This document shows positions 30,585 through 58,003 of a stretch of DNA of 64,000 nucleotides, piece after piece; the stretch's first letter is position 1; every line of letters starts with the position of its first letter. The stretch is taken from assembly GCA_041674405.1 (NCBI GenBank), contig JBAYVT010000005.1, forward strand, positions 7,120 to 71,119, read 5' to 3'. The notes beneath the pieces are model-generated. The model made no database searches. It saw nothing but the letters and a program-made list of their open reading frames with translations, and had not been told where the DNA came from. The DNA comes from Patescibacteria group bacterium. Lineage in GTDB: Bacteria; Patescibacteriota; UBA1384; XYA2-FULL-43-10. The position numbers and the translations under genes are program-made.

Positions 30585-30944
30585 ATGTACTTAATAATTC
30601 TTGGTTTAATTCTTGGTCTCGTATTCGGAGCATTCCTCAAAATTGATATTCCGACCGAATATGCCAGATATACTGCTGTAGCAATTCTCGGAATGCTTGA
30701 TTCTGTTTTCGGTGCTATTCGCGCTCAGGTGGAAGGAAAATACGATACAATTATTTTTATTACTGGCCTTGCTTTCAATATGGCTATGGCTGTCCTTATT
30801 ACATACTTCGGTGACAAGCTCAATCTTGATCTCTACCTGGCAATACTTATTGCCTTTACGATTCGCATTTTCCTAAACCTTGGCATTATTAGAACTACCA
30901 CAATAGACCATTGGCGCGCAAGCAAGCGAAACAAGAGCGAATAA
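30585..30944 (+). CDS. Small basic membrane protein, DUF1290/Sbp-like
   Basis: IPTEYARYTAVAILGMLDSVFGAIRAQVEGKYD and FTIRIFLNLGIIR resemble the Bacillus Sbp (DUF1290) pattern. A tandem 12-mer AAATATATTAGG x2 lies upstream at about 30527-30550. Confidence 0.55.
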   Translation: MYLIILGLILGLVFGAFLKIDIPTEYARYTAVAILGMLDSVFGAIRAQVEGKYDTIIFITGLAFNMAMAVLITYFGDKLNLDLYLAILIAFTIRIFLNLGIIRTTTIDHWRASKRNKSE

Positions 30945-31382
30945 GGTATAATTTACCATCATTAATCTATTAATTCATCCTGGGGCATTCTAGGGGTTTT
31001 TGATCGTATTTTGTGCTTTTTTTGAGGCATGAATAGGGTAGATTTGAAGCTAAAAAGTATATTACGACGCATTATGTATGTTATGCGTCGTTTATTGAAA
31101 TTTAATCCAATCCGTTTAAGTGCACCGCGAATTTCAATAATTAAAAATATTTCATAAAAACTACAAAAAAAACTTGAAAAAATTCAGCAATCTATTTTCC
31201 CTTTTATATTTCAATTTTCTTTTTCCGGAAGGAAAACATTTCGGTCAAGAATAAATAAAAAAATATCCGTCGATTTTGAGCACTCCCCCGCCATTACCTA
31301 AAAAATTAAAAAACGCCATTTTTCAGGCGCTACCACTTTGGGCTATTCAAAGAACTAAGGACTACAAACTACAAACTGAGAA

Positions 31383-34300
31383 TTAGAGTTGTACAGCTTT
31401 GCCCTCTTCTAGATCATCTGCGCTACTATTGTCTTTGCTTGCGGTTAAGCTCCCGTCATCTTTTTCGTCGACGACAGAGGTCCTAGTCGGTACTGGTTTT
31501 ATTTCCGGAGCAATTTCAAGGCTGGTACTCTCCCCGACCGGTACCACAGAATTCTCTTCTTTCAAAATGCCAACATTATTTACAACGGAGACATCCTTTT
31601 TTGTAGAATTTCCACCCTTGTTATTTTGGGGCTTATTTTTTTCTTTTTTCTTTTTTCCAGTCCCCTCTTTTTTATCTTCTTTTTTCAAGGAATCTTTTAT
31701 CTTCTCATTCAATTCAATCATTTTGAGGCCGGCGGGTGTAATTTCCACCCCTGTTTCTGCCATTTTTTCTTCATCAATATCTTCACCCATGTACCATTTC
31801 ACTCCGCCCCTGGCGGTTTGCTCTTTATAGATTTTATCTCCGATAATGTTTTGATATCTAAAAATGCGAGGTTTGCTTTCCTTCGCCTCAGCTGAATCAG
31901 CCTCCTCCTCTTTGGGTTCGGATTGCTCAACAACTTTCTCCGGTAATTCTTTTTCAATAACAGGCTCTGCTGAGACGGGTTTTGGTGCTACTTTTGTTTC
32001 CGTCGGTTTTTCCTCGGCCTTTTCTGCGGGTTTATATTCTTCAATACCTGGGGCAGTGATCGGTTTTTCTTCTGGTTTTTTCATTGTCAAAAGAGCTTCA
32101 AGGCCGCCTTCTTTAAACGCTTCGGCCTCTTTCTTTGCCTCCTCCTGTTCCTTTTTTCCGCGGTCTTCTATCGCCTGCTCCACCTCCCCTCGTGTTGCAG
32201 AATATTTTTTATGGGACAGATCAATAATTTTCTCGGCATTGCCAGTAAGTTCCATCCGTGGAGGCAAAGTTCTGGCAGAAAACGCTGGAGCAGAAACACC
32301 ATCTATTAAAAGCTTGATGTATATGTTGAACTTATCCAAATTCACCAAATCATTAGCATCAAAAACCGGTTCGAATTCTTTTACTAGATAATCGGCGTCT
32401 GTCCCGCCAACCCTAAAGGAAATAATCGTACCAGCATTGCCGAAAACCGCGTCTCTCACCTCTTCCGGCATTTGGGTAATGTATTGGTTGGCGATATTTA
32501 GGTTAAGATGATATTTTCGAGCTTCAGACAAGATCACAGCGAAAGACTCAGTCGCAAAATTCTGAAACTCATCAACATAAAGATAGCAATCAGGTCTTTT
32601 GTCAACAGTGACATCGGCGCGGCTCATTGCAGCAAGCTGAATTTTTGTAATAAGCATTGCCCCCAGTAGCGCAGAGTTATCCTCACCTATTTTACCTCGA
32701 GACAAATTGACCACCATTATTTTTTCTTCATCCATAATTTGTCGGATATCTAGCGTAGATTTAGGCTGGCCAACGATATTTCTAATTGTAGCTGTTGACA
32801 AAAACTGGCCGACTTTATTCAAAATCGGCGAAACCGCCTCGGTCCTGAACTTGCTGTCGTATTGTGCAAATTCCATAGTCCAGAACTCGCGAATAACGGG
32901 GTCCTTCACCGCCTCAACAACTCTTTCGCGAAATCTTGTTTCAGTAAGCATTTTTGGAATATCAAGCATTGTTGAGTTCGGATAATCAAGAAGAGCAAGG
33001 ACAGTATTGCGAAGTATATGTTCAAGCCTCGGTCCCCAGGAATTTCCAAAGATCTTTTTGAAAATACCGACGAATCCGGATGCGACCATTCCCTTAAAAT
33101 CATCTTCCACATGTTCCAGAAGGTTAAATGCAATCGGGTAAGCTCTATCAGCCGGATCAAACACAACCACATCTTCAACTCGATTATCGGGGACGCAAGC
33201 TAATACTTTTTCTGCAAACTCACCATGTGGATCGACGATTATTACTCCCCTATTTTCAAGAACATCATCAACCGCCATATTCTCTAAAAATACTGATTTA
33301 CCCGTACCAGACTTACCAATTACATATATGTGTCGCCTGCGATCATCCCGTTTGATACCAAAACGCCGATGGATATTTCGAAAAGTTGTCTCCCCTATTA
33401 CTGTCAAATCTTCAGGAGGGGTATTTTCCGAAAGTGGCAAATTCGCTGGCGGCTCCCCTTTCTTTGATCCGGACCAGACAATATTGGGCGTCTCTACCGA
33501 TTTGTGGGGAAAGTGATAAAGAGATGCGAGTTCTCCGATATTGAAAACATATCCCTCATCCTCAAACACTCTGCCACAATAATCTTGCCAAAATTCATGG
33601 TGATCGATTTCGATATCGCCGCTCTTGAACCCATTTAGATTTGTGGTGTTAAACTGCTTGAAAGCCGCAGCAATGCTCTGGGTTTTAACCTTCGCCGATA
33701 CTTCATCTTGCGAAATCGACATAATTCTAATCTTGGTAGCAAATCCGAGTTTCATGATTTTCATTTCGATGGACTTAAGGGCATCTTCGACAGTTCCTGG
33801 GAGCTCTACCTTATTTTCACCGGGAGCCGCGATTTCCGCTCCAGGGGTAACGGCCTGAACAAAAATCATTTTCAAAACGTTGCCGAACATACCAAAGATC
33901 TTAGAGATTACACCACCTGCTCCCTGTTTCTTGCCGGAGCGCACAGCTGAAATTAACTTATTTCCCCTATCCTGCCACTCATCCCCCACCGGACGAATCA
34001 AAATTTGCATCCAGACTTGTTCGCCAGGGTTCAATTTTGACATTACCGAGGTAATACCAGATATCGGGTCAACTTCAAAATCAGAGAAAAGCTTAATCGG
34101 ATAAACATCTGGCTTGGTCACTTTTAGCTCCGTTCCGGCAAAATGCACCTTGCCATCTCCAATTTCGGAAATATAATCAGAAACTTCATGAATTTCAACC
34201 GTCGGATATTGAGCATAAACTTGTCCCTCCACAAATTCCTTTAAGTGTTTCGGGACAAATACATAAAACTGAATATATTTATCCTTTGCAACAATCTCAA

Positions 34301-34544
34301 AAGACATATGGTTTTGAAAGAGAGCATTCTCCGAATAAATGCCATGAATCGAAGCAAACATTTGCTCAGCAGCAAGCGGTGCTTTTTCATTGTTTCTAGG
34401 AACATCAATTCTGATTATTGTGTATTCCTGGGACGAAAGCCACGAAAGGCGCCGTTCATTTTGGCGAATCTTAAAAAACTGCAAGAGTGTATATACTCCC
34501 CCCAGAATTAGCACTAAATATAAGAAATATAAAAATATTGCCAT
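31383..34544 (-). CDS. VirB4/TrbE/CagE-family (DUF87/AAA_10-like) T4SS ATPase, N-terminal TM anchor, about 300-aa disordered Lys/Glu-rich C-terminal tail
   Basis: N-terminal TM (IFLYFLYLVLILGG). Walker A HIYVIGKSGTGKSV, then VIIVDPHGEF. Walker B-like YLYVDEFQNF. The tail is KKEQEEAKKEAEAF and so on. Confidence 0.7.
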   Translation of the reverse strand: MAIFLYFLYLVLILGGVYTLLQFFKIRQNERRLSWLSSQEYTIIRIDVPRNNEKAPLAAEQMFASIHGIYSENALFQNHMSFEIVAKDKYIQFYVFVPKHLKEFVEGQVYAQYPTVEIHEVSDYISEIGDGKVHFAGTELKVTKPDVYPIKLFSDFEVDPISGITSVMSKLNPGEQVWMQILIRPVGDEWQDRGNKLISAVRSGKKQGAGGVISKIFGMFGNVLKMIFVQAVTPGAEIAAPGENKVELPGTVEDALKSIEMKIMKLGFATKIRIMSISQDEVSAKVKTQSIAAAFKQFNTTNLNGFKSGDIEIDHHEFWQDYCGRVFEDEGYVFNIGELASLYHFPHKSVETPNIVWSGSKKGEPPANLPLSENTPPEDLTVIGETTFRNIHRRFGIKRDDRRRHIYVIGKSGTGKSVFLENMAVDDVLENRGVIIVDPHGEFAEKVLACVPDNRVEDVVVFDPADRAYPIAFNLLEHVEDDFKGMVASGFVGIFKKIFGNSWGPRLEHILRNTVLALLDYPNSTMLDIPKMLTETRFRERVVEAVKDPVIREFWTMEFAQYDSKFRTEAVSPILNKVGQFLSTATIRNIVGQPKSTLDIRQIMDEEKIMVVNLSRGKIGEDNSALLGAMLITKIQLAAMSRADVTVDKRPDCYLYVDEFQNFATESFAVILSEARKYHLNLNIANQYITQMPEEVRDAVFGNAGTIISFRVGGTDADYLVKEFEPVFDANDLVNLDKFNIYIKLLIDGVSAPAFSARTLPPRMELTGNAEKIIDLSHKKYSATRGEVEQAIEDRGKKEQEEAKKEAEAFKEGGLEALLTMKKPEEKPITAPGIEEYKPAEKAEEKPTETKVAPKPVSAEPVIEKELPEKVVEQSEPKEEEADSAEAKESKPRIFRYQNIIGDKIYKEQTARGGVKWYMGEDIDEEKMAETGVEITPAGLKMIELNEKIKDSLKKEDKKEGTGKKKKEKNKPQNNKGGNSTKKDVSVVNNVGILKEENSVVPVGESTSLEIAPEIKPVPTRTSVVDEKDDGSLTASKDNSSADDLEEGKAVQL

Positions 34545-34589
34545 CCTGATACCAATTTTATCATGAATTGCACTTTAATTAAAAGTGAA

Positions 34590-35612
34590 TTATGCCAGGA
34601 TATATTTACTTGATCCAATTTTCTTAAATTCGCTTTGGTTTTGCAGATTGATAAGAACTGTATTTTTTCTTACTTGGCGTTGTTTCAAAACTTCCTTGTA
34701 AATATCTGAGAAATCCATAGCGCCGTCTTCCTGCTTCAAAACGGCAATTATGATATCTTTAACCGTTCCCGGGGCGTATCCCCACTCTTTTAGTGCGTAT
34801 ATGCCGCGGCCAATCAACACAAAACGAGCGTCGGCAATGAGTTCGTTGTGAACAGTTGCGGGAACTACTTTTTTCTTATCAAATTGTTCTTCTGAGATTA
34901 CCTTTGCAATATCGGTAAAATGCATCGGTTTTTTATTTTTGCGAAGAACGTAGTAAATTTTATCCCTGACCGTTCTTGGGTTGACTTCCGGCCATTCGGA
35001 AAGACCAAGAGATCCTTCGTAGTCCTCAACAATTTTTTTTGAAATTCTCGGCAAATATGACAAAAATGAAATTTTATGAACTTTGTGATTCGGGTGTGCA
35101 TCAATTAATATATCTAACTTTTGGGGGCTTTTCTGTTTCTTTAAATAATTTGCCCAATCGCGAAGAATTTTAATTACTTCATCTTTGGATAAATCATTCA
35201 AAATCCAGCTTTCATGTAATTCGTCATGTTTTTCGATTGCTTGAACTTCGGGAACAACTTTAATAATCAAGTTCAACGAGTTTATTTCCTCGTCTTTTGC
35301 AAGAGCCTGGCTTTCTAGTACTTTCGCCGCTATATCCTCTTTGTGAATAATACCTTGTGTTTTGATTTCTCCCAAAATGTCACCGGCAAGAGCAGAGTTC
35401 TCTTCGGCAATATACTTAGCAACTTTTTTAAGCCCTTCTTTTTCAATTTGCCTGATTCTTTCTCGCGATAGGTGCAAATCTCTGCCAATAGATGATAGAG
35501 TTCTCCCCCTGCCATCAATTCCGAAACGACCACGAATGACCAGGGCTTCTTTTTCTTTAAGCCCTGATGTCGCCTTGTCAATAATAGTTTTTGCCGACCT
35601 GATTTTTTCCAT
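34590..35612 (-). CDS. Sigma-70 region-4-like HTH protein with two C-terminal HARE-HTH-like modules (putative transcription factor)
   Basis: LVIRGRFGIDGRGRTLSSIGRDLHLSRERIRQIEKEGLKK matches sigma region 4. MHFTDIAKVISEE...VHNELIADARFVLIGRGIYALKEWGY matches the HARE-HTH pattern of RpoE-delta-like proteins. Confidence 0.5.
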   Translation of the reverse strand: MEKIRSAKTIIDKATSGLKEKEALVIRGRFGIDGRGRTLSSIGRDLHLSRERIRQIEKEGLKKVAKYIAEENSALAGDILGEIKTQGIIHKEDIAAKVLESQALAKDEEINSLNLIIKVVPEVQAIEKHDELHESWILNDLSKDEVIKILRDWANYLKKQKSPQKLDILIDAHPNHKVHKISFLSYLPRISKKIVEDYEGSLGLSEWPEVNPRTVRDKIYYVLRKNKKPMHFTDIAKVISEEQFDKKKVVPATVHNELIADARFVLIGRGIYALKEWGYAPGTVKDIIIAVLKQEDGAMDFSDIYKEVLKQRQVRKNTVLINLQNQSEFKKIGSSKYILA

Positions 35613-35623
35613 CTTGTTTCTTT

Positions 35624-36193
35624 CTAGATTAGATTATCAACCGCAGCCCAGACTGATTCCTGGTCTTTTGGAACAATTATTCCAAGGCTGTCCCCTGTTT
35701 TGGCTTTAAAATATGTTACGGAAGCTAAAAGAACTTTGTACTTTTTTCCTTCAACATCGACTTGATATTCGCCGTCACCAGTTTCTTCCAATGTGCCAAT
35801 CAAGTTCTTTCTGGGAACGGGACCGATTTGCTTGTAAACAAACTTGCCATCCTCAGAAATGGTTAGCTTGAGAATATCTCCCTCAATGAGCTTTGATTTT
35901 GACGCATAATTTGGCGGAACTTGATAGGTTTTTTTATCAGAAGAAATCATTTTTTCACCATCAAAAACTCCCTGAATTACCTCCCCATCATCTTCTGTTT
36001 CAAGTAGTGTCGCTTTTTTGTTTATTTCTGATGCGAAAAGTTTCGATTTGATAGCCCTGATCTGGTTCTCACAGGAATCAAGCAATTTCCTTATTTCTTC
36101 AAGATCGTTTTTGGCGACCATATTGGCCTTTCGTTTTATTTCAGTTTTGCTATTCTCAGCTATCACATTACCACAATAATGAACTTGAGTCAA
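35624..36193 (-). CDS. Hypothetical protein (189 aa)
   Basis: The ORF is open with no recognisable motif. It lies between the two VirB4-like genes. Confidence 0.35.
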   Translation of the reverse strand: MTQVHYCGNVIAENSKTEIKRKANMVAKNDLEEIRKLLDSCENQIRAIKSKLFASEINKKATLLETEDDGEVIQGVFDGEKMISSDKKTYQVPPNYASKSKLIEGDILKLTISEDGKFVYKQIGPVPRKNLIGTLEETGDGEYQVDVEGKKYKVLLASVTYFKAKTGDSLGIIVPKDQESVWAAVDNLI

Positions 36194-36208
36194 CGTTTTT
36201 GCCGCTAG

Positions 36209-36275
36209 TTGTTAGTTTCTAGTTTCAGGAAAAACTCAATAATAAAATCAAGCCTTCTACAAACTAGAAACTGGC
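36209..36275. repeat. Long inverted repeat (AGTTTCTAGTTTC ... CAAACTAGAAACT) 3' of VirB4-2; shares the motif CTACAAACTA[C/G]AAACTG with the region 3' of VirB4-1 (31358-31378)
   Basis: 36209-36222 is complementary to 36259-36272. A 16 of 17 identical word follows each VirB4 stop. Confidence 0.45.
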
Positions 36276-36291
36276 TACTAGAAGCTATCTG

Positions 36292-38835
36292 CTATCCCAA
36301 TACTCCCTTAATGTTTCCCTCACCAATACCAGGAAGATCAATTACATCTACTTTTGACCTATCGCGAATTTCTTGGTCAACTATTTCGCGGGGTTTGCCA
36401 TACTTTAATCGGGACAATTCAACCATAGCACTTCCCAATTTCTTGTTTTCGTTTTGATCAGGAGCAACGCTTGCCGCGTTAAACGGCCTCGTTGGCGCTC
36501 CGTCAATAAGCATTTTGATATAAAAATTGTATTTATCAATTGTCGTCATGTCGTCGATTTTTAATGGATCAAACTCTTTGATAAGAAATTCAGCATCGAC
36601 GGCCCCGATCCGGAAAGCCACCAACGTGCCGGCGTTTCCCATAACAGCATCTCTGATTTTTTCATCCAATTGCGCCACATACTGGTTTGTAATATTGAGC
36701 GAAAGTTTATATTTTCTAGATTCAGAAAGGATAGTTGCAAACACATCCGTGATAAAGTTTTGAAACTCGTCCACATAAAGATAAAACGGGGTTCTGTCTT
36801 TTTCATTTGTGTCCTGCCGCGAAAATGCTCCCATTGCAATTTTGGATACAATTATCATTCCAAGAAGAAAAGCATTTATCTCCCCTATCAATCCCTTTGA
36901 TAGATTGCAAATCAATATCTTTTTTCCATCCATAACTTCTCGAAAGTCGAAGGCTGATTTATTTTGGCCAATAATATTTCTCATCATGTCATTGGTCATA
37001 AATCGTCCAAATTTCGAAGTAAAATAGTTCAACATTTCTGACTTGTGAAAATCTGAAGTTTTTGCCATTTGTTTTTGCCAAAACGCCTTAACGACAGGAT
37101 CTGTAACATTTTTCACGCACTCTTTTTCAAAATCCGGATCAGTAAACAGCCTAGGAATGTCAACGATTGTGCCCCCTTCTGGCTGAACCATTAAGGTAAG
37201 GGCGGCATTCCTCATCCAATGTTCGAATTGCGGGCCCACAATGCCGGTTTGGCCCGGATCAAACAATTTATAAAACATCTGAATTGTTTCCTGAACCAAG
37301 AAATCTCTCTGCTCCGGTGTCTTCCACTCAAGCATATTAAGCCCCATCGGCCGTTCAATATCCGCCGGGTTAAAATAGATGACGTCTTCCGCCCGTTCTT
37401 TGGGGATGCGGTTTAATATGTATTCAGCAGCGTCGCCATTCGGGTCAAGATATGCCACTCCCCGGCCTTCGCGGATGTCTTGCATAATCATGTTTTCAAA
37501 AAGAACGGTTTTACCAACGCCGGTTTTACCAATCATATATATATGGCGTAGCCGATCTTCTTCTTTTATTCTGACCGGCTTTGTTTCTCCACGATAAATG
37601 CTGTTGCCAATAATCGTTCCTTCGTCTGGCAGATTTGAAGGCGGAGCCTGTCTTTTTGCCAAAAGCCAAGCGACATTTGGCGTTTCGACAAATCTATTTG
37701 GCATGTGAATTATCGAGGCCAACTCTTCTGTGTTTAAAATCATTTTCAAACCAGCGCCGAAAATCCTAAAAATATAATTTCCCACTTCCCTACCCTTGTT
37801 TTTAGCTTTTTTGGGAAGAATGTTATTTGAGTCCGGTGCATTAAATTGGGAAAACGCACTAGCAATATTCTTTGCATTTAGCTTCGCTTCTTCGGCCGTT
37901 TTTGCAACCGCCACAATCCTAACTTGAACATCAAACCCTATCTTTGCCGCTTTTTCTCCTAAAAGTTTTACCTGCGCTTCTTGCATCGGCGTCTGCTTAT
38001 ACGGGTTCTGTGGGTTATACATTGGATCATGCTGGCCATCTTTGTCACCAGGTTTTACCGCATTGTTGCCAACTTTTCCAATAAAATTAAAGAAGGTTTC
38101 TGTCGCCCTTACGGTTTTATTATTAGAATACGAAAGCCTGGTTTTGCCTTGTTGGATATTGTAGGCCGCTTTCTCTGAACCCACTCGCCAAACCTGATTG
38201 TTTGGACGGATCATGACTTGTATTCCCGCTGACTCATCTTCGGACAATTTGGAAAGCGAATTGGTGATTGCATTCAGGGGGTCTTCCTCCAGATTTTTAT
38301 ATGTCCGAATTGGAAAAATATATCTGCGAGCAAGGATCAGTGTTAGAATTTCGATAGGCAGGGGCTTATCTGGAAAAATCGAGTAATCAAGATCGCGATC
38401 GATATTTGCTTCAGGATATTGCGCATGCAGGTTTTTCTCCACAATCTCAGCAATTGTCGTAGGGCAACCGATATAGAAAAATATTTTGCCGTTTTTTGCA
38501 ATTATCTCCATAGAAATGTGGTCTTGGCCCGTAATGGATTTTTTTAAATCTTTGTCAAACAAAGAGTTTATGCTGGCATAGAAAGGTTCAATCACAGAAA
38601 GCATCTCCTGAAAATTTTTGCGCTGGTCATCTTCACTGGCGTGTGGCTCCTTCGGCACGGAAACTCTAAGCATAGTCCAATCTTCAACCAATTCAAGCTG
38701 TTTTCTGTGCAAAAATGCATTACGAATTTTTTTATACAGAAAACTGATTACAATGATGATTGCTATTATTGCGAGAGGCCAAATCCACCAAGGCGCCCCT
38801 CCTCCGGTATCGTAATAATTGGGATCTGAATACAT
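36292..38835 (-). CDS. VirB4/TrbE-family T4SS ATPase paralog, N-terminal TM anchor
   Basis: TM (WWIWPLAIIAIIIVISFLY). Walker A HIYMIGKTGVGKTV, then VAYLDPNGDA, and Walker B FYLYVDEFQNF. Co-linear with VirB4-1 but divergent. Confidence 0.7.
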   Translation of the reverse strand: MYSDPNYYDTGGGAPWWIWPLAIIAIIIVISFLYKKIRNAFLHRKQLELVEDWTMLRVSVPKEPHASEDDQRKNFQEMLSVIEPFYASINSLFDKDLKKSITGQDHISMEIIAKNGKIFFYIGCPTTIAEIVEKNLHAQYPEANIDRDLDYSIFPDKPLPIEILTLILARRYIFPIRTYKNLEEDPLNAITNSLSKLSEDESAGIQVMIRPNNQVWRVGSEKAAYNIQQGKTRLSYSNNKTVRATETFFNFIGKVGNNAVKPGDKDGQHDPMYNPQNPYKQTPMQEAQVKLLGEKAAKIGFDVQVRIVAVAKTAEEAKLNAKNIASAFSQFNAPDSNNILPKKAKNKGREVGNYIFRIFGAGLKMILNTEELASIIHMPNRFVETPNVAWLLAKRQAPPSNLPDEGTIIGNSIYRGETKPVRIKEEDRLRHIYMIGKTGVGKTVLFENMIMQDIREGRGVAYLDPNGDAAEYILNRIPKERAEDVIYFNPADIERPMGLNMLEWKTPEQRDFLVQETIQMFYKLFDPGQTGIVGPQFEHWMRNAALTLMVQPEGGTIVDIPRLFTDPDFEKECVKNVTDPVVKAFWQKQMAKTSDFHKSEMLNYFTSKFGRFMTNDMMRNIIGQNKSAFDFREVMDGKKILICNLSKGLIGEINAFLLGMIIVSKIAMGAFSRQDTNEKDRTPFYLYVDEFQNFITDVFATILSESRKYKLSLNITNQYVAQLDEKIRDAVMGNAGTLVAFRIGAVDAEFLIKEFDPLKIDDMTTIDKYNFYIKMLIDGAPTRPFNAASVAPDQNENKKLGSAMVELSRLKYGKPREIVDQEIRDRSKVDVIDLPGIGEGNIKGVLG

Positions 38836-38920
38836 TCGGAAATTTCTAATTTCTAATGACCAATTTTTTAATCCCTAAATTTTTTAGTTATTAGATTTTA
38901 GTTATTAATTATTAACTAAA

Positions 38921-40516
38921 TTATGCCGCTTTTCTCAGTTGCTCTTCTTCCGATGCTTCGCGTCTTGCATCCGCCGCCATTTCTTCAATATCATGAACCT
39001 GTTTTGATGACACTTCGGAAGAACGAGCTAGGCCAGCCGCCCAATTTCTGAACCGGGCAGATAACGGCAATTTCGGCCCGCTAGCTTGTTTCTGTGTGCC
39101 TATGGGAATTTCACGGCTAGACTGAGAAGAAATATCCACCGGCTGAATCTCCCCTATGACACCTTCTTTCTTTTTATCTTCTGTCGGCTCAATAATTTTA
39201 GCATGCGGTTCTTTTTCAAGGGTAGGCAGGGGCCCCGGTTCCGCTTCAACGCTGGCCACAATATGATCTTGCGGTACCTCTACCAATTTTACTTCATCCT
39301 TTTTAGCCTGAATGTCTCCACTTTCCACTTGTTCATGTCCTTCTGCTTCTGTCTGATTTGGCAATACGGGCTGTGTTTCAATAACAGGGGCTTCTGTTCT
39401 TGGCAGAGGTTCTTCTTCTACATTATCAATTGTAATATTACCACCGGTATTATTTGCCTCATTTATTAACTTAAGGGCCTTTTCTCTTGCCGGATTTACA
39501 AATTCTGGAGCGCTGGCCTTTATGCGACCGCTAGCTGCCGGTTTTTCTCCGCGCAATATTCTAATTTCTTTGCCCCCATCAAGTGTTTCCGCGTCTAACT
39601 CTTTTTTTGGTTTTAAGGTCGGATCCAAAGGTTTGGCCGCTGGAGCTTCTGCTAACGGCTGATCCATAAGGCCATCAAGTTCTTCCACGACCACTGCCGC
39701 AGAATCATCAGCCCCACTGGCTGCATCCTTTGCTTGTTGTTCTGGATCAAGATTTCTGGCCCCTGAAACAGGCTCGTCTTCATCACGAAGTTCAATTGCT
39801 GAAACTTTGGGAGCTTGGGGCAACGAGTTTTTTATTGCTTTAACGGCGATCTCCAAATTTTTACTATGGTCCAATCCCCTTTTGTTAAGATCGCGCCTAG
39901 CAAGATCCTTGTTTACAACATCGCTTTTCGGAGGCAAGTCTTGGTCAAATTTCTCTATTCCTCCGGAAACGTTTCTGCCCTGCTCACTTAGCACTCCCCC
40001 ATCTGGACCAATTGAAACAATTTCCTCCACTTTGGCTGGGCCTTTGGGTAATTCTTCACGAGCGACCTCAGGCTCAACCGCAGGCTTTGCAACCTCTGGT
40101 TCCAATTCATCTGGACCGAGATATTCCAATTTGGGCCGCGAAATCTCTTCGGCTGGCTTAGCTTCTTCAGGTTCTATTCTCGTCGAAGCAACTGGCTCCG
40201 GATCAATTTTTTTTCTTCCCGCCATCCTTTCAAGCCGCAATCTAACCCTCTCCGGAACGGATATCGGAGTTTTCGCCTCAGCGTGCACGTCTGTTTCAGC
40301 CATAGAAATCGTGACATCTGTACCTTCAGTTGTATCGTCTGGGCCAATCATATATTCATTCAGTAAGGCTCTTTTTTCCTCAGGTGAAGCACTTGCCAAT
40401 CTCTCTTTGAGATGCAAAAACAAACCAACATCAGGCTCTTGATGTTCGGAATTTGAAAATGCCTGGGCAATGCCGATTAAACTTCCATCCTTCTTCTCGG
40501 GGTCACTACTTGCCAT
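38921..40516 (-). CDS. Acidic Pro/Glu/Ala-rich low-complexity protein (531 aa)
   Basis: Biased composition (PE, PEV, AKPA repeats). No TM helix and no recognisable domain. Confidence 0.4.
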   Translation of the reverse strand: MASSDPEKKDGSLIGIAQAFSNSEHQEPDVGLFLHLKERLASASPEEKRALLNEYMIGPDDTTEGTDVTISMAETDVHAEAKTPISVPERVRLRLERMAGRKKIDPEPVASTRIEPEEAKPAEEISRPKLEYLGPDELEPEVAKPAVEPEVAREELPKGPAKVEEIVSIGPDGGVLSEQGRNVSGGIEKFDQDLPPKSDVVNKDLARRDLNKRGLDHSKNLEIAVKAIKNSLPQAPKVSAIELRDEDEPVSGARNLDPEQQAKDAASGADDSAAVVVEELDGLMDQPLAEAPAAKPLDPTLKPKKELDAETLDGGKEIRILRGEKPAASGRIKASAPEFVNPAREKALKLINEANNTGGNITIDNVEEEPLPRTEAPVIETQPVLPNQTEAEGHEQVESGDIQAKKDEVKLVEVPQDHIVASVEAEPGPLPTLEKEPHAKIIEPTEDKKKEGVIGEIQPVDISSQSSREIPIGTQKQASGPKLPLSARFRNWAAGLARSSEVSSKQVHDIEEMAADARREASEEEQLRKAA

Positions 40517-40910
40517 CTTTGACAGGTGCCTTTCTTAAAAGCTCGTCCTTAATATCCATGAGCTCTTTTAGGATTTTATCTTCATATCCCGGAATATTTG
40601 CTTTCACAAAATCGTTAATCTCAGCCGCATCCGCTTTTTGGGCAATTTCCGAAAATTCCGCAACTTTGCCCTCCGGCAGATAAAGCATAATTACATTGAG
40701 AATTCTCGCGTTAACGAGCTCCTCCATCTTCTTTTCTACCTGTTCTCTTTCAACATCTGAGATACCGGAGTTCTTGCCAAATCCAAGATCCTCCATTAAT
40801 CTCTCTTTGTACATTTGAATGGTGGCAGCAACATCGGCCTTATCGCCGCTAGATTGGTCCGAATTTGCATCGTTCATATTTGTTTGTAGATTGTCATCCA
40901 AATCGGCCAT
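40506..40910 (-). CDS. Hypothetical acidic protein (134 aa)
   Basis: The ORF overlaps the downstream gene start by 11 nt, suggesting translational coupling. No recognisable domain. Confidence 0.35.
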   Translation of the reverse strand: MADLDDNLQTNMNDANSDQSSGDKADVAATIQMYKERLMEDLGFGKNSGISDVEREQVEKKMEELVNARILNVIMLYLPEGKVAEFSEIAQKADAAEINDFVKANIPGYEDKILKELMDIKDELLRKAPVKDGK

Positions 40911-40928
40911 ATTCCCTCCAATATATAA

Positions 40929-43415
40929 TTATAATGTGACTTTGCTAAAATATGAAAATTCCATCGCCTTAAGGGAAGACTCGTCAAGACTGACAGGGGT
41001 TCCAAAAGTTCCGGTAGCCGGGTCAAACGGCTTGAATTCGAAATTTGGGGCAGTAAAACTATCAAGTTGCAAGAATCTTCCAAATGAGCTTGCATACAAC
41101 ACACAATTACTCGCATAACCAGCGCCAGCTAAAGATTTTAAACTATCGACGAACTTATCCTTCTTTTTGTCTGTAATTCCGAATTTACCCTCAAGATTGT
41201 AATCATCCCCGCTCACATTTATATATGCATCAACTTCCCAGATTAGATCTTTGCCATCTTTATCGACATCTAGAATAACTACATCAATATCTGCACCCGA
41301 AGGCAACATTGCAAGTTCGGCGATCCTTGGTGATTTGACAATCATCTTTTTGCTCGGAGCACCTTTGCTTACGCCAGTAAGGATATAATCACCGCCGAGC
41401 CTCTTTAGCTTTCCGGTAAACTTCTTGCCCAGATATTTTTCATAAGCTTCTTTATCAAATTCTTCTTCTGGCTCTATTTCTGGTGACGAACCTCTCCCTC
41501 TTGAAACAACATTGACTAAATTCCTATCAATAGTTCCTTCGGCAGTAAGTATGTCATCAAGTGAAAATTCCGGATGCGGATTTACAGGCGTTGGCCCAGA
41601 TAATTTTTTCCTATCCGCTTCCGTCATCTTAAATACAAGCCTGCCACTTGCATCAATATCGGTAATTTCAAATCTTCGGTCTCTTGTACCGATAACATAT
41701 CCGGCAGGCAATGTGGTAAACATGACTGTCGCCCCGATCAGTTCTTGCTTTACATTTTCTTTATTTTCTTTAGTCTTGTCTCGCTTTTCTGCCTGCTTTT
41801 CCGACCGGTTCTCGGCATTTTCTTTGCGCCGGACATCTTTTGCTTCATCTGTAAGCCTTCTTTGCGCCTTTTCATTGCCCCTTTGGGCTTTATCAATACC
41901 CAAATATCCGGCAACAGCAGCCACTCCTACGCCTCCGGCAATTTTCGCCATAAGAGAAGCAGAAGCTGCATCAGCTGAAGAATTGTGTGCTAAATCCAAG
42001 AAATCGGTGGCAAGCGAAGGATGGGAAAGAATAAAATGTTGAATATCAGGCGGGAAGGAAAGAAAGGTTTCCTTGTTGTCCACAAGAAACTGGCCAAATT
42101 GTCCGCCATCCGGCATCGCCACTGACAAGTCTAAATTCGAATGGTCGGCAAGATTAAACATTTCGTGCAGATTGCCGGATTGAAGATATTGATTGAATGT
42201 GGCCTCATAGGTCGGGCCTAGTCCGGTGGCCTGATCAAACCCAAACAGAGCTCGATCCCCGCCAAATTCTTTAATTGCATTTATGTGTCCAACCATATCG
42301 ATATGCTCAGGCGGAACCATGCCTTGTCCCATATCTTGGTTGTAAACATCAAAATTATTTTGCATCGTTTGGAAGTGTTGTAAATCTTCTTGGTATGCGG
42401 CATCAGTTAGTGATGCTCTCTTCGCATCCAATGCGTCATGGAGCACTTGCTCGTGAGACTGGGTGTGCAAAATATGCTCCGAAATCCAATCGTTCACCCC
42501 ATGCATGCCGCCATGGTGTTGAGCATAGTCAACGACTGTTCCAATTACGCCTCCAAACGCCGCGCCAACCATTGCGCCCTTGACCGCAGTCATAATTTCC
42601 GCTTTGCGCTTTAATGCAAATATTTGATCATAGGTTTCTCTCGTCTCTTCTGAAGCCATTCTGGCTATCTCTTTAGATTCATCTCCCGCATCAGCTAAAG
42701 CTTGGTCTATGCGCGACATAACCGGATTTAGCTCTTTATTCTCGGCCAATCTTTCGTTTCTACGATCTCTTAGAACTTCCTTCATCAATCGATATTTTGA
42801 AATATATTCGAGTTTGGCTTGTGCATTTCCACGCACATTTCTCGCATCCATCGCATTTTTCATAATACCAAGAGCAGTGTATAAATCAGCTTCAGTCATC
42901 TTGGACATATCTGTTTTGCTCTTCGAAAGTATATCAAGGTTTGCCATCCAGGTAGCTGCAGATTCCTGCTGATTTCGGCCTCGCATCCAACCCCAAAATC
43001 CGCCGGCAGCACCACCACCAACTGCACTTGCAGCAGGGCCTGCGAGATGTAGTCCGGCACGCACACCTGTCCGTATTGCCATACCCACGCCAACAGAGCC
43101 GACCATTCTGCCTGCCCAGTTGTTCCATACACCATTCCAAGCACCACGAATACCGCGCCGGGATGCGATTACTTGCAAAAGAATATTTGCATCAGAGTCC
43201 ATTTCGGTCAAAATCGCCCTTACTGCCTCAGGATTGCGCAGCATCTCTGCGTGTTCTTTGGCAGCATCTTGCTCCACTAGGGTTCTTGGCTTCGCAAAAC
43301 CATAGCTCGATCCCCAATCGTCTCGGTCGATAATACTACCGACTCGCTCGGCAATATCTTCGTTTACATCGGTGCGCCTTTCACCTCGTGTAGCCAATTT
43401 CCCTCCCTTATTCAC
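40929..43415 (-). CDS. Large hypothetical membrane protein (828 aa) with several glycine-zipper-like hydrophobic segments
   Basis: Segments GSVGVGMAIRTGVRAGLHLAGPAASAVGGGAAGGFWGW, AVKGAMVGAAFGGVIGTVV and IAGGVGVAAVAGYLGI. No recognisable domain. Heads the VirB4-2 transcription unit. Confidence 0.4.
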   Translation of the reverse strand: MNKGGKLATRGERRTDVNEDIAERVGSIIDRDDWGSSYGFAKPRTLVEQDAAKEHAEMLRNPEAVRAILTEMDSDANILLQVIASRRGIRGAWNGVWNNWAGRMVGSVGVGMAIRTGVRAGLHLAGPAASAVGGGAAGGFWGWMRGRNQQESAATWMANLDILSKSKTDMSKMTEADLYTALGIMKNAMDARNVRGNAQAKLEYISKYRLMKEVLRDRRNERLAENKELNPVMSRIDQALADAGDESKEIARMASEETRETYDQIFALKRKAEIMTAVKGAMVGAAFGGVIGTVVDYAQHHGGMHGVNDWISEHILHTQSHEQVLHDALDAKRASLTDAAYQEDLQHFQTMQNNFDVYNQDMGQGMVPPEHIDMVGHINAIKEFGGDRALFGFDQATGLGPTYEATFNQYLQSGNLHEMFNLADHSNLDLSVAMPDGGQFGQFLVDNKETFLSFPPDIQHFILSHPSLATDFLDLAHNSSADAASASLMAKIAGGVGVAAVAGYLGIDKAQRGNEKAQRRLTDEAKDVRRKENAENRSEKQAEKRDKTKENKENVKQELIGATVMFTTLPAGYVIGTRDRRFEITDIDASGRLVFKMTEADRKKLSGPTPVNPHPEFSLDDILTAEGTIDRNLVNVVSRGRGSSPEIEPEEEFDKEAYEKYLGKKFTGKLKRLGGDYILTGVSKGAPSKKMIVKSPRIAELAMLPSGADIDVVILDVDKDGKDLIWEVDAYINVSGDDYNLEGKFGITDKKKDKFVDSLKSLAGAGYASNCVLYASSFGRFLQLDSFTAPNFEFKPFDPATGTFGTPVSLDESSLKAMEFSYFSKVTL

Positions 43416-43593: not shown

Positions 43594-44436
43594 TTACGGT
43601 CTCGTACCAGTGCTTCGGAAGCGAATGCCCCCGATGCGAACGCGGAACTCGTAGTTAGTCCCGGCAGGAGCCTGCTGTTCCCACTCTTCCCACAGGTTAC
43701 CAGCCATGCGAACGATATTCGGCCAGAACAACCATACCAGCAGGCCGATAACACCTCCGATGACCAGGACCAGGACCGCCCAGCGCCAGACCTCCCCTCT
43801 GACCTGAGCGCCCGTCATAGGCGGCGCAGCCGGGGCCTGGACGGCCGGCATGATCGTAGCAGGAGCGACAGGTACCGGCACGGACGGAAGCGGCGCGATC
43901 TGCGGCTGGGCCGCAGGGGGCGCCAAGGGGGCGGCGGCCGGGGCCTGCGGAGTCTGGACCGGCGCAGGTGTCGTGGCAGTGGGCGGGGCGGTGGGAGCAG
44001 AAGCAGGATCGGTCTTGGTCGGCGCATCCGTCGTCTTGAGGACATAGCGCTTGTCCAGCTGGCCCTGCGTCTTGTAGCCCCAATCCTGCAACCAGGCGTT
44101 GGAAGCGGTCTGTCCCGCAGGGGGCAGCCCGTTAATCCCATGCTGCTCCAGGTTATCTACCCGGCCACCCAGGGCGTTGAGCTGCCCCTGGAGGTGGCTG
44201 ATGTTCCCAGACGCCCGGCGGGCACGGGGAACATCGCGGTGGATCGTGGCCTGAGCTAGCTCCTGCCTTGCGGTGGCAAGCTGGCCCTGCAGGCTGGCGA
44301 TCTCGGCGTCCTTCGCCGCGATCTGCGCGGCGTTGTTGGTCGGAGCCGGAATCGGCCCCTGTGCCAAGACGGCGCAAGCAGACAAAACGACCAGGAACAA
44401 AACGGCTATCAGGTTGTGGGTGGTGAAGTTTTTCAC
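43594..44436 (-). CDS. Secreted/anchored Pro-Ala-rich protein (signal peptide, coiled coil, PAPA repeats, C-terminal TM) in GC-rich island E
   Basis: AGAGAGG RBS. Signal peptide MKNFTTHNLIAVLFLVVLSACAVLAQG. PTAPPTATTPAPVQTPQAPAAAP repeats. C-terminal TM VLVLVIGGVIGLLVWLFW. GC-rich codon usage. Confidence 0.5.
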   Translation of the reverse strand: MKNFTTHNLIAVLFLVVLSACAVLAQGPIPAPTNNAAQIAAKDAEIASLQGQLATARQELAQATIHRDVPRARRASGNISHLQGQLNALGGRVDNLEQHGINGLPPAGQTASNAWLQDWGYKTQGQLDKRYVLKTTDAPTKTDPASAPTAPPTATTPAPVQTPQAPAAAPLAPPAAQPQIAPLPSVPVPVAPATIMPAVQAPAAPPMTGAQVRGEVWRWAVLVLVIGGVIGLLVWLFWPNIVRMAGNLWEEWEQQAPAGTNYEFRVRIGGIRFRSTGTRP

Positions 44437-44722
44437 TTCAACCTCTCTTTCTGCCCTTCTCGAGGGCTATCGCAATAGCGCTCGAGGTCGGACAGGTATT
44501 TGTCTTCCTCGGAGCAATGTATCTGCCAGCATTCGCGCCAGAATAATGATCACGCCAGAATTACGCTGATCTTGCATTCACATTGCTTCGAAGAAGTATA
44601 TATTGTTAAGGTGCCATCGCTCTCAGTATCCCACTTCGCTACGCTCCGCGGGATTATTAGGCTAAAGCCTAATAAAAAGTGCGATAAGGTGCTGTACAAC
44701 AACACGGGTGGAGGGGGAACCC

Positions 44723-44809
44723 ATGGCTCAAACGACGAATCGTTTGAATGTCATACAGCACGCTACCGCACTAATATTTCAGGAAAGTGTGCGACATTGT
44801 GCCGGATAG
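44723..44809 (+). CDS. Possible 28-aa micro-ORF with super-SD (GGAGGGGGAA) in island E
   Basis: MAQTTNRLNVIQHATALIFQESVRHCAG. A paralogous micro-ORF lies 110 nt downstream. Confidence 0.25.
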   Translation: MAQTTNRLNVIQHATALIFQESVRHCAG

Positions 44810-44833
44810 CAGTCACAGGCGGAGGGGGAACCT

Positions 44834-44956
44834 GTGTCTCGATATGTTTCCGAAGAAACAATCAAGAAAGCTATCCAGCACGATGTCGCACAATGTTGTA
44901 ATTTCCCTTCCAAGAGCTTAAGATCCCTCTCTCACCCTCGGAACACGCTATTGTAG
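44834..44956 (+). CDS. Possible 40-aa micro-ORF (GTG start) with identical GGAGGGGGAACC leader
   Basis: VSRYVSEETIKKAIQHDVAQCCNFPSKSLRSLSHPRNTLL. Shares the IQH..A motif with the upstream micro-ORF. Confidence 0.2.
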   Translation: MSRYVSEETIKKAIQHDVAQCCNFPSKSLRSLSHPRNTLL

Positions 44957-45077
44957 CATATACTATAAATTTTGTCAAGACCTTTAATTTATTACTTTCT
45001 AAAATAAATTGTAGTGTGATAAAATATTGATGTAATTATAAAAAGCTCTATTTTGAAAGAATAAAAGAAAGGAAGAT

Positions 45078-46541
45078 ATGGGAATATTTGACCGATTCCG
45101 CGGCGGCGGAAAACCAAGTGATCCAACGATAAATATTGAAAAAGAAGATTTGCAGCCGACAGACAAAGAAATTAAAGAAGCCAATAAGACCAAAATGGAT
45201 GAGGCTCTCAATGACCCCAAATTTACGGCGTTTCTTGAAAAATTTGGCGATACTGAAACAGTTGATGTAGGTGAAGATAGTTCGGAAATTCTTGAACGTT
45301 ATGAAATGTATCAGACAATCGGTTCTGCTTCAAAAGAAATTAAGTCAGTATTGCGCGAAGAAATATTTGCCGACACCCAAATAAATCTCACTGACAAGGA
45401 GTTGGAATGTGTTAATGAGTTCATGGAAAGCTTGGCAGTCGAAGGCGGCAAAGGCACAATAGAGACTATCACCAAGACTATGGCCGAATTTAGAGAACTC
45501 AAGCGGCAAATTGAAACAGAAGAACAAGGTCTATCTCAACGATCCGAGGCATTTGAAAAGAGAAAAGCCGCATTTGACGCAGCCAAAGATATCAAGCCCT
45601 ATAAACGTGTATTGGAAAGATTTTTAAGCAAAGACGAAGCTGGGGCAATTCAGGAAGCGAGAAAAGCCGGCGTTGAGGTAGCCGGTTTCGGCAATCGTAA
45701 TTTGGCGGCTAAGGAAGAAGAATTTAAAACCGAAGGATCCACCATAGACAATCTCAAATCTGCACAGGAAGCGAGGCGCAAACAATGTGCCGAAGCAAGA
45801 GAAGTGCTTCTTGGGCAGTTTGCCGAAGATTCCGGAGCAATGAACGCAATACGGCAAAAGATTGCTGACCGCCTCACCGGCATGGTGACCGAAGAAAGCA
45901 AGGCGGGCAAACTCGATGACGCACAATCACAGCTCGAACAATTCAAGTCAGTAGATAGCCGCTATGTCGACGAGGAAAGATTGGGCGAAGATTTTCAGAA
46001 AGAATTGGATAAATACTTAAAAGAACGCCTCGGTGAAATGATCAAAACCACCCTAGGAAAACTAAAATCTGAGCGCGGTCAGCTAGATACGGCAAGAAGA
46101 AATTTAGACCAATTCTTCAAACGCGAGGTGATGGGTTCTGCTTCCGGTGAAGAAGTAAAGGAATTTGTCGGCCAAACCATCACAGAGGCTTATAAAGATT
46201 TGAGCTATCCACAAAAGCTTCTGGTACGAAAAGTTTGTGCAGAAAATGGGATCGATTTAGCAAATTATGTTACAAAGACAGAACCTAAGCCTGAAGATGA
46301 TGAAGAAACCAAAGGTGGTTCGAAGGATTCCGAATCCTCTGTAACAGGGTCTGTGGAAGCCGAAAAACAGGAATCACCTGCTGGATGGCATGTTGAAGAT
46401 GGAGTTTGGGTTCGCGATACAGCTCCTGCTTCAGCAGAAAATCCAGGCGCGGATGGTCCAAAAATTATTAACCCGACAAAAGCTTCTACTCCTGAAACAT
46501 CAGCAGAAAATCCTGATGCCGGCCATGATCAAGCTATTTAA
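45078..46541 (+). CDS. Hypothetical coiled-coil protein (487 aa), Glu/Lys-rich
   Basis: AAAGGAAG RBS. Predicted long alpha-helical regions. No recognisable catalytic motif. Confidence 0.45.
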   Translation: MGIFDRFRGGGKPSDPTINIEKEDLQPTDKEIKEANKTKMDEALNDPKFTAFLEKFGDTETVDVGEDSSEILERYEMYQTIGSASKEIKSVLREEIFADTQINLTDKELECVNEFMESLAVEGGKGTIETITKTMAEFRELKRQIETEEQGLSQRSEAFEKRKAAFDAAKDIKPYKRVLERFLSKDEAGAIQEARKAGVEVAGFGNRNLAAKEEEFKTEGSTIDNLKSAQEARRKQCAEAREVLLGQFAEDSGAMNAIRQKIADRLTGMVTEESKAGKLDDAQSQLEQFKSVDSRYVDEERLGEDFQKELDKYLKERLGEMIKTTLGKLKSERGQLDTARRNLDQFFKREVMGSASGEEVKEFVGQTITEAYKDLSYPQKLLVRKVCAENGIDLANYVTKTEPKPEDDEETKGGSKDSESSVTGSVEAEKQESPAGWHVEDGVWVRDTAPASAENPGADGPKIINPTKASTPETSAENPDAGHDQAI

Positions 46542-55565: not shown

Positions 55566-55619
55566 TTTTTATCCTTTTTTAGCCCTCCGCGAACACATTA
55601 TTTTATTTCTAATAAATAC

Positions 55620-57328: not shown

Positions 57329-58003
57329 CTAGGGCGGTGTGGGCGTGGGCACGGGGATCGGATCCCCGCAGGTCCCCGGCACCTTCTCCTCCTTGTTCGC
57401 CATCCCGGCGAATAGGGTGAGAAGCGTCTCGGTACAGCCTTCGATCACCCGAGCCATGCCCACCGGGCAATCCGGGAGAGGCTGGCTGGGGCTGATCCCC
57501 GCAGGAGCGACCCACTCCCGAGCCGGCGCGTACACGACGTACGGTACCGGGTAGGGCTTGGGGATCTCTACGACCACCGGGTAGGGTACCTTGACCTCAA
57601 CCCGCTCAGGACACGCCAGTTTGCACGCTGGCGGTACCGGAGTGCATGGGATGAAGAAGCGGCCCCTAGCTAGGTTACCGCACCGCACCATACGGGTAAT
57701 CGTGTACCAGCGCCCCTGTACCCCGTCCTTGCAGCCCATCTCTGCAGGTACTGCGTAGACAGTTTCTGTGGGGATCAGGTACCCGGGAACGAAGCGACCT
57801 TCGGACTCAAACCAGACCTCGGCGTCGACATACTGATTGAGCCGGTAGGCCTCCTGGCCGTTGATCGCCGGGCAGTGCCGCCCGATCGGGTACGTGTTCG
57901 TGATCTTCTCCGAGAGGTTGATGCCCGAGGCAAACGCTGCCCCGACCATGACCATCAAGAGAAGGGTGAGGATCAGCGTCAGCTTACCCCTCATGGATCT
58001 CAC
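57329..58003 (-). CDS. GC-rich secreted Cys/Pro-rich protein (224 aa) in island F
   Basis: Signal peptide MRSMRGKLTLILTLLLMVMVGAAFASG. A PVPYVVYAP Pro-rich segment. Very high GC3. Overlaps the upstream gene by 20 nt. Confidence 0.5.
   Translation of the reverse strand: MRSMRGKLTLILTLLLMVMVGAAFASGINLSEKITNTYPIGRHCPAINGQEAYRLNQYVDAEVWFESEGRFVPGYLIPTETVYAVPAEMGCKDGVQGRWYTITRMVRCGNLARGRFFIPCTPVPPACKLACPERVEVKVPYPVVVEIPKPYPVPYVVYAPAREWVAPAGISPSQPLPDCPVGMARVIEGCTETLLTLFAGMANKEEKVPGTCGDPIPVPTPTPP

Follow-up and report, generated by a model that had tools for sequence, protein, structure and literature searches.

What are the two membrane-anchored ATPases encoded within positions 31383-43415 of this Patescibacteria DNA, and which transport machinery, if any, do they serve? 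An earlier note on the window (the whole 64-kb stretch analysed here) had labelled both as VirB4/TrbE-like, had reported no VirD4, and had suggested a non-canonical type IV secretion system (T4SS)-like or DNA-uptake apparatus. As a whole this interpretation is partly supported: its description of the sequence holds, but the identity of the ATPases has to be corrected. Both are very probably homologues of type IV coupling proteins (T4CPs; VirD4/TraG/TrwB-type), so that the VirD4 homologues reported as missing are the two ATPases themselves, and VirB4 is what the window lacks. The two genes are the following:

31383..34544, minus strand: ATPase-1, 1053 amino acids (aa), with a transmembrane (TM) helix at aa 3-21, a DUF8128 N-domain at about aa 35-395, a T4CP-type P-loop ATPase at about 400-790 and a Lys/Glu (KE)-rich disordered tail at 791-1053
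36292..38835, minus strand: ATPase-2, 847 aa, with a TM helix at aa 16-34, a DUF8128 N-domain and a T4CP-type ATPase

The architecture of these proteins is established. Both are membrane-tethered and conserved, with intact motifs, and consist of a cytoplasmic DUF8128 domain (~350 aa) plus a RecA-like P-loop ATPase that contains an all-helical insert. They are 36% identical to each other over ~790 aa, spanning the N-terminal domain and the ATPase. As had been noted, each carries one strong N-terminal TM helix, which is followed by positive residues in both, and the tail of ATPase-1 is indeed KE-rich (17% E, 16% K). The Walker A motifs (GKSGTGKSV in ATPase-1, GKTGVGKTV in ATPase-2) and the common Walker B motif YLYVDEFQNF also read as described. 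The middle motif, given as DP(H/N)GE(F/A), applies to ATPase-1 (DPHGEF) but not to ATPase-2, which has DPNGDA. ATPase-2 is identical to the NCBI hypothetical protein WC080_03860. In precomputed annotation, DUF8128 (PF26449) is assigned to the identical protein P0001 and to 120 of 120 homologues among the matches listed, and the label also appears on the orthologues of ATPase-2 and ATPase-1 in the related loci L082 and L083. A DUF8128-only profile finds 3,830 clusters at 50% identity, with the domain always just after the N-terminal anchor of proteins of ~800-1100 aa. A literature search for DUF8128 returned zero papers.

Identity as T4CP homologues is indicated by hidden Markov models (HMMs), a PDB sequence search, the fold of the ATPase domain, and full-length homology to plasmid proteins that adjoin a relaxase; these same results point away from VirB4/TrbE. 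In Pfam, ATPase-1 matches DUF87 (33.7 bits), TrwB_AAD_bind (PF10412; 24.1 bits, cut-off 20.5) and TraG-D_C, and ATPase-2 matches TraG-D_C (PF12696; 23.1 bits, cut-off 22). The best whole-domain match in NCBIfam is the VirD4-like CD1115, over residues 398-713 of ATPase-1 (E = 9.6e-13), and TraD matches ATPase-2 (2.2e-16), both far under the NCBIfam equivalog cut-offs. PF02534 (T4SS-DNA_transf) is precomputed on most close homologues of ATPase-2, and homologues bear names such as "type IV secretion system DNA-binding domain-containing", "conjugative DNA transfer family" and "TraM recognition domain" in their source records. A profile search of the PDB gave significant matches only to TrwB and DotL/IcmO, both of them T4CPs, aligned via Walker A and the shared DPNGD. 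Neither ATPase matches the Pfam families CagE_TrbE_VirB (PF03135) or AAA_10 (PF12846), and the NCBIfam models VirB4_plasma and CD1110 align over only ~40 residues at the P-loop, not over the whole domain. FtsK/SpoIIIE fits no better, as both proteins have a single TM helix, no PF01580 match and no detected winged-helix gamma domain.

Homologues are also found on plasmids. A tblastn search against 72,556 plasmids detected homologues on 630 records, many of them matching across N-domain and ATPase, in Bacillus (316), Streptomyces (84), Staphylococcus, Clostridium, haloarchaea and Sulfolobus. On the plasmids of Bacillus subtilis (NZ_OX419581) and Shouchella clausii (NZ_CP012476), the next gene downstream of the homologue is a replication-relaxation (relaxase-type) gene; beyond it are conjugal-transfer genes (which the B. 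subtilis record names TcpD and TcpE) and the gene for a large ATP-binding protein. Since a relaxase-type gene adjoins it and a separate AAA_10 VirB4 is encoded downstream, the plasmid homologue holds the position of the coupling protein. By BLASTP, ATPase-2 matches the protein in this position on the B. subtilis plasmid with E = 1e-29 over residues 107-797, whereas the VirB4 of the same plasmid, which serves as an internal control and scores 285 bits on AAA_10, is matched at E = 0.04. The DUF87/DUF8128 proteins of Bacillota conjugative and haloarchaeal plasmids thus belong to the same family as the window proteins, with homology over their full length and 22-29% identity. On a Natrinema plasmid (NZ_CP084475; L085:7794-12006), the DUF8128 part is a separate open reading frame (ORF) directly upstream of the T4CP gene, in a cluster that also contains a pilin and a large conjugal transfer protein. 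DUF8128 therefore occurs both split, in haloarchaeal plasmids, and fused, which helps the case for the N-domain as an interacting module.

Structural comparison gives a more mixed picture. The AlphaFold 2 (AF2) model of ATPase-2 has a predicted local distance difference test (pLDDT) score of 61.5, with 70-90 in the N-domain and < 50 at residues 691-786, and the fold searches, with TM-scores of 0.2-0.27, are indicative only. The best matches to the ATPase domain of this model are T4CPs. For the low-confidence model at full length, the best match is the VirB4 protein TrwK of R388, and its N-domain resembles the VirB4 N-domain. A "VirB4-like N-domain plus T4CP-like motor" would be a nuance in favour of the original label, and is a lead that comes from the model. 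The layout of an N-domain and a RecA-like C-domain is indeed common to VirB4; however, no sequence profile links the two, the ATPase domain is nearer to T4CPs, and no VirB3, VirB6 or VirB8 is encoded in the window or in 80 related loci (±10 kb). Common to the window proteins and to TrwB of R388, VirD4/Cag-beta and DotL/IcmO are a P-loop ATPase that is anchored in the membrane and belongs to the FtsK/HerA-related superfamily, a Walker A motif of the form GxxGxGK(S/T) with DPNGD after it, a helical insert, and a C-terminal core of the TraG-D_C type.

The region that contains the two ATPases comprises seven co-directional minus-strand ORFs; the earlier note counted eight, although its own list names seven, and the coordinates it gave stand. 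Besides the ATPases, its features are:

34590..35612, minus strand: HTH340, a 340-aa DNA-binding protein with Sigma70 region 4 and HARE-HTH (Pfam)
35624..36121, minus strand: p165, listed as an ORF of 189 aa at 35624-36193, with its real start at M25
36205..36281, minus strand: tandem-heptamer hairpin between the stop of ATPase-2 and the start of p165, identified by inverted repeat and folding energy
38921..40516, minus strand: p531, 531 aa, E/A/P-rich
40506..40910, minus strand: p134, 134 aa, acidic, DUF5663-like
40929..43415, minus strand: p828, 828 aa, a Gly/Ala-zipper protein
31312..31378, minus strand: 3' end of the ATPase-1 unit, with the second copy of a 17-nt word (31362-31378), then a canonical intrinsic terminator (31312-31331)

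Among the neighbours is p165, whose homologues place its real start at M25 and so shorten the 189-aa ORF of the earlier note to a 165-aa protein. It has 7,968 homologues at E <= 1e-3 throughout the Patescibacteria, belongs to no Pfam family, carries an invariant NYASKSKL motif, and folds into a long N-terminal helix and two OB/S1-like barrels. p165 is a phylum-wide protein that is likely to bind nucleic acids. In Berkelbacteria-like loci its gene lies directly downstream of ATPase-2, and the proximity of an OB-fold protein to a translocase invites a link, although such folds are generic and only some classes show the adjacency. HTH340 is a transcription-factor-like protein, in which Pfam confirms both the Sigma70_r4 and the HARE-HTH domains originally reported. 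It is 70% identical in L082, and the Berkelbacteria-like clade (L001-L004, L044, L082) is the only one in which it stands between ATPase-1 and p165.

Upstream of ATPase-2, the p828-p134-p531 cassette keeps its position in the closest relatives and is absent outside this clade. Its counterpart in L083 encodes proteins of 950 aa, 115 aa (DUF5663) and 549 aa, and L044 and L004 are similar. The cassette diverges quickly: in L083, p828 is 26-32% and p134 38% identical, p531 has no match, and ATPase-2 is 76% identical; in L082, p531 is 28% identical to its positional counterpart as against 87% for ATPase-2. Such divergence fits surface, adaptor or cargo proteins, or disordered proteins. The composition noted earlier for p531 is borne out (14% E, 11% A, 9% P); the protein is probably disordered and fast-evolving, and matches nothing in Pfam or NCBIfam. 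p134 matches Pfam DUF5663 below threshold (E = 0.0028), its positional homologue in L083 is annotated as PF18908 (DUF5663), and HMM searches find relatives in L001, L003, L004, L011, L012, L015 and L044. Hydropathy shows weakly hydrophobic segments in p828, which has no family match in Pfam, NCBIfam or PADLOC. A general homologue search with p828 returned only the protein itself, as low-complexity words swamped the index; relatives were instead sought by phmmer/HMM in the fetched loci, and were found only in L004, L044 and L083. The neighbours, cast originally as partners in an apparatus, are lineage-specific and form none.

How widely is this arrangement shared? A scan of species-representative genomes yielded at least 598 confirmed loci spread over Patescibacteria classes, spanning Berkelbacteria, Doudnabacteria, Woese-, Gottesman-, Curtiss-, Roizman-, Levy-, Davies- and Staskawiczbacteria, Gracilibacteria and others. 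Among Berkelbacteria-like metagenome-assembled genomes (MAGs), the ATPases are 65-87% identical. The neighbourhoods of the 80 related loci, compared over the same ±10 kb, fall into the following arrangements:

Berkelbacteria-like (L001-L004, L044, L082, L083): ATPase-2, p165, HTH340, ATPase-1, then convergent DUF1290-SecF-SecD, as in the window where the contig reaches far enough
L005-L007: TGT, ATPase-2, ATPase-1, followed by SecFD in L007 (the contigs of L005 and L006 stop short of it); the ATPases adjoin directly with nothing between
L012, L013 and L015: ribosomal/SecY operon, then ATPase
L013, L008-L011 and L016: p165 within 0.7-3 kb of the ATPase, then DnaX (in most, also GtrA)
Microgenomatia (~60 loci, among L019-L080; each conserved neighbour in 10-23; e.g. 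L020:12623-13977): NrdR, RNR, PduO, a ~150-aa ORF with no Pfam match, a single DUF8128 ATPase, an XerC/D-type tyrosine recombinase on the opposite strand, DivIC (DivIC/FtsB), a class I (W/Y-type) aminoacyl-tRNA synthetase and FtsH

The loci always lie among housekeeping genes, and the neighbours track phylogeny, not function; the check for a conserved gene neighbourhood revealed no conserved apparatus. Tandem paralogy is the only recurrent feature specific to the ATPases. The ATPase behaves as a vertically inherited core chromosomal gene. In the window, TGT (tRNA-guanine transglycosylase), L7/L12, L10, L1, Pth and RF flank it at one end, and DUF1290, SecF, SecD, RluD-like, RmuC and an AddA-like helicase at the other end. 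When ~50 window ORFs were scanned, Pfam and NCBIfam bore out the reported lack of VirB6, VirB8, relaxase and pilin genes in the 64 kb; these scans likewise found no VirB4, and only housekeeping genes. Public records give the titles 'uncultured Gammaproteobacteria', 'Pseudomonadales', 'Methylomirabilota' or 'Limisphaerales' to many contigs with clear Patescibacteria genes (L016, L017, L019, L023-L025 and others); these are probably mislabelled or contaminated MAG bins.

The explanation that we favour overall, and consider reasonably probable, is that the locus encodes a chromosomally fixed, paralogous T4CP pair serving as a substrate-coupling or translocation motor. By analogy with T4CPs and FtsK/HerA relatives, each ATPase, or a mixed ring of both, would assemble into a hexamer tethered to the membrane, which would recruit a macromolecular substrate (DNA or unfolded protein) at the cost of ATP and thread it toward a membrane channel. 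With its variable KE-rich tail, ATPase-1 may bind substrates or adaptors in the manner of the C-terminal tails of TraD and VirD4, and the products of the p828-DUF5663-p531 cassette could be cargo, adaptors or surface proteins. No channel is encoded at this locus; the likeliest partner would be the MPF-FATA-like VirB4 T4SS that most Patescibacteria carry elsewhere. Coupling to a T4SS specifically is a tentative proposal, drawn by analogy and held with less than even confidence, and the ATPases may also act outside a T4SS.

Published surveys provide a setting for this proposal. T4CP homologues (VirD4-type) are present as 5,713 copies in 2,918 of 3,035 Patescibacteria genomes (96%), only 148 of these copies lie near virB4, and VirB4 itself is found in 2,417 of the 3,035 genomes (80%) (Quinonero-Coronel et al., 2025; PMC12102498; see also the review PMC12857230). 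The window pair shows the same pattern of about two copies per genome, near-universal and away from virB4, a correspondence by pattern and not gene by gene. That account comes without the DUF8128 N-domain, the tandem paralogues, the adjacent p165, DUF5663 and the fast-evolving cassette.

Several observations weigh against a T4CP pair that works for a T4SS. With respect to identity, the scores on T4CP-family HMMs are marginal (20-60 bits), and judged by them the window ATPases are distant members of the family; identity to TrwB, VirD4 and DotL is 15-19%, and the AF2 model of ATPase-2 is of low confidence. Each protein has a single TM helix where T4CPs usually have two, and an extra N-domain, the 350-aa DUF8128 between anchor and ATPase, that is absent from every solved T4CP. 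With respect to function, the window genes are chromosomal and duplicated, and within the 64 kb they lack any conjugation context or linkage to a relaxase and/or a VirB4-based T4SS, whereas the Bacillota plasmid genes adjoin a relaxase-family gene upstream of TcpD/TcpE and an AAA_10 VirB4. T4CP homologues occur in more genomes than VirB4 (96% against 80%); this speaks for their being at least partly independent of the T4SS. In Southlakia epibionticum (Saccharibacteria), the t4cp homologue is not essential for epibiotic growth, whereas T4SS genes are (PMC12102498), and a T4SS cluster without a coupling protein has been described (Wang et al., 2023). The link of these ATPases to a T4SS is made by homology and analogy.

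The strongest rival takes up these same observations. It proposes co-option of the DUF8128 ATPases as nucleic-acid translocases that work autonomously, independent of any T4SS, for import or handling of host RNA or DNA or for an FtsK-like role in division, maybe together with p165. We regard this as unlikely, though well worth keeping in view. The excess of T4CP homologues over VirB4, their near-complete absence from the vicinity of virB4, and the dispensability of t4cp where the T4SS is essential all speak for it, and co-option for another role was not excluded by the authors of the survey (PMC12102498). A protein with two OB/S1-like folds follows ATPase-2 directly in Berkelbacteria-like loci and lies within 0.7-3 kb in L008-L011, L013 and L016, and a preprint of 2026 makes the case that host RNA is a food source for Patescibacteria. 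However, no pore or channel partner is encoded nearby, p165 is not adjacent to the ATPase in the ~60 Microgenomatia loci, OB folds are generic, and the neighbours are all housekeeping genes in an order that is simply phylogenetic. The XerC/D-type recombinase and DivIC that flank the ATPase in Microgenomatia suggested a replacement for FtsK. This idea was down-weighted, because the Saccharibacterium TM7x has an annotated ftsK, so that a replacement is not obviously needed, and because the synteny is confined to one class.

A bolder variant would make the DUF8128 T4CP pair a phylum-defining nucleic-acid motor, a heteromeric ring that acts with the universally conserved OB-fold protein p165, binds host RNA or DNA and translocates it through or alongside the Patescibacteria T4SS/pilus, with p828-DUF5663-p531 as host-specific adaptors or cargo. 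We think it improbable in this full form; if true, such a motor would provide a molecular handle on nucleotide acquisition by ultrasmall epibionts.

The reading from which we started, in which VirB4/TrbE-type assembly ATPases and the neighbouring proteins form a novel, self-contained T4SS-like or DNA-uptake apparatus, is now very improbable. The family assignment points elsewhere, the VirB4-like N-domain of the model being the nuance on its side, and the notion of a new apparatus is largely refuted: the locus holds members of a known, functionally unsolved gene family that sit among housekeeping genes. Least credible of all, a degraded integrative conjugative element (ICE) or plasmid remnant, or an anti-phage HerA/MADS-like defence module, could draw on the relatives on conjugative plasmids, on PADLOC matches to mad8 (E = 1.9e-16) and HerA, and on the DUF87 match of ATPase-1, but the locus has no integrase, relaxase, tRNA or direct-repeat boundary, its GC content equals that of its flanks, its TGT/SecDF synteny is conserved across species, its catalytic motifs are intact with high conservation, and the PADLOC matches are to the generic ATPase core with no other MADS or NurA/Sir2 partner. 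The degraded ICE was rejected on synteny, composition and motif integrity, and the defence module on the generic nature of the mad8/HerA matches; close relatives showed no patchy presence of the locus, and neither att sites in the flanks nor a co-localised defence island was seen.

What, then, does the locus add to what is already known? The family is in Pfam as DUF8128, it is named by PGAP and counted in the 2025 survey, and the exact proteins are in NCBI. Modestly new are the recognition that the DUF8128 and T4CP architecture is homologous over its full length to monoderm and archaeal plasmid coupling proteins and, to a similarly modest degree, the tandem-paralogue arrangement, the fast-evolving upstream cassette and the OB-fold neighbour. 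Patescibacteria are host-dependent, and in one genetically tractable species the T4SS is essential and coupling homologues are apparently dispensable. Reading the locus as a T4CP pair, not as VirB4, shows where the "missing" coupling proteins are, and p165, DUF5663 and the rapidly diverging cassette supply candidate partners. The value of this lies in a sharper hypothesis, not in the discovery of a new system.

The small DNA features of the locus may bear on its expression. The inverted repeat reported in the gap after ATPase-2 is real (36205-36225 / 36261-36281), and the hairpin that it forms has a folding energy of -32.1 kcal/mol (z = -4.97). Relatives have hairpins of tandem 7-nt words directly after the ATPase-2 stop (L082:3925-4070, L083:12536-12680, L001:12539-12670), in which the word differs from genome to genome; because position and structure are kept and the words differ, the conserved feature is the hairpin and not its sequence. 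It is probably an internal terminator, attenuator or RNA-stability element, and as such probably separates the two units into which the locus had been divided. The 17-nt word CTACAAACTA[CG]AAACTG stands, as had been observed, directly 3' of both ATPase stop codons, and it occurs exactly twice in the 64 kb (31362 and 36257; 0.02 expected). It is conserved in 0 of the 80 related loci, and was for this reason rejected as a family-wide regulatory motif. The terminator of ATPase-1 is conserved in L082, L001 and L044. Some 20 nt past this terminator, in the convergent ATPase-1/DUF1290 intergenic region (30945-31382), the 11-mer CGGGGGAGTGC is invariant in five of five aligned genomes, and three of these (the window, L082 and L044) also share a small hairpin, CGCATAACATACATAATGCG. 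These elements may represent a small RNA or a regulatory element.

No credible Rfam match was obtained for the whole window at the gathering threshold, or for 44250-45150 and 30900-31420 at E <= 1, and ARAGORN detected no tRNA or tmRNA in the window. Next to the cassette, a high-GC island (0.48-0.51 against ~0.40) covers 43594-44436 on the minus strand and 45078-46541 on the plus strand. It encodes a 280-aa Pro/Ala-rich coiled-coil protein with a signal peptide and a C-terminal TM helix, and a 487-aa KE-rich coiled-coil protein, neither with a Pfam match; close relatives have unannotated genes in the same space between TGT and the p828 cassette. The stretch between the two genes (44437-45077) is GC-rich and has no credible ORF, and contains an extended -10 promoter close to consensus (minus strand, 44978-44950; 11/12 matches with TG), a 23-nt inverted repeat of 91% identity (44788-44892) and a 27-nt direct repeat (at 44703 and 44814). 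It may specify a structured non-coding RNA. Further along, two ORFs without a Pfam match (GC 0.49-0.55) follow a pair of adjacent genes at 53544-57173 and 57329-59276, both on the minus strand, whose products contain DUF11/DUF7619/DUF7507 repeats and are likely to be surface proteins.

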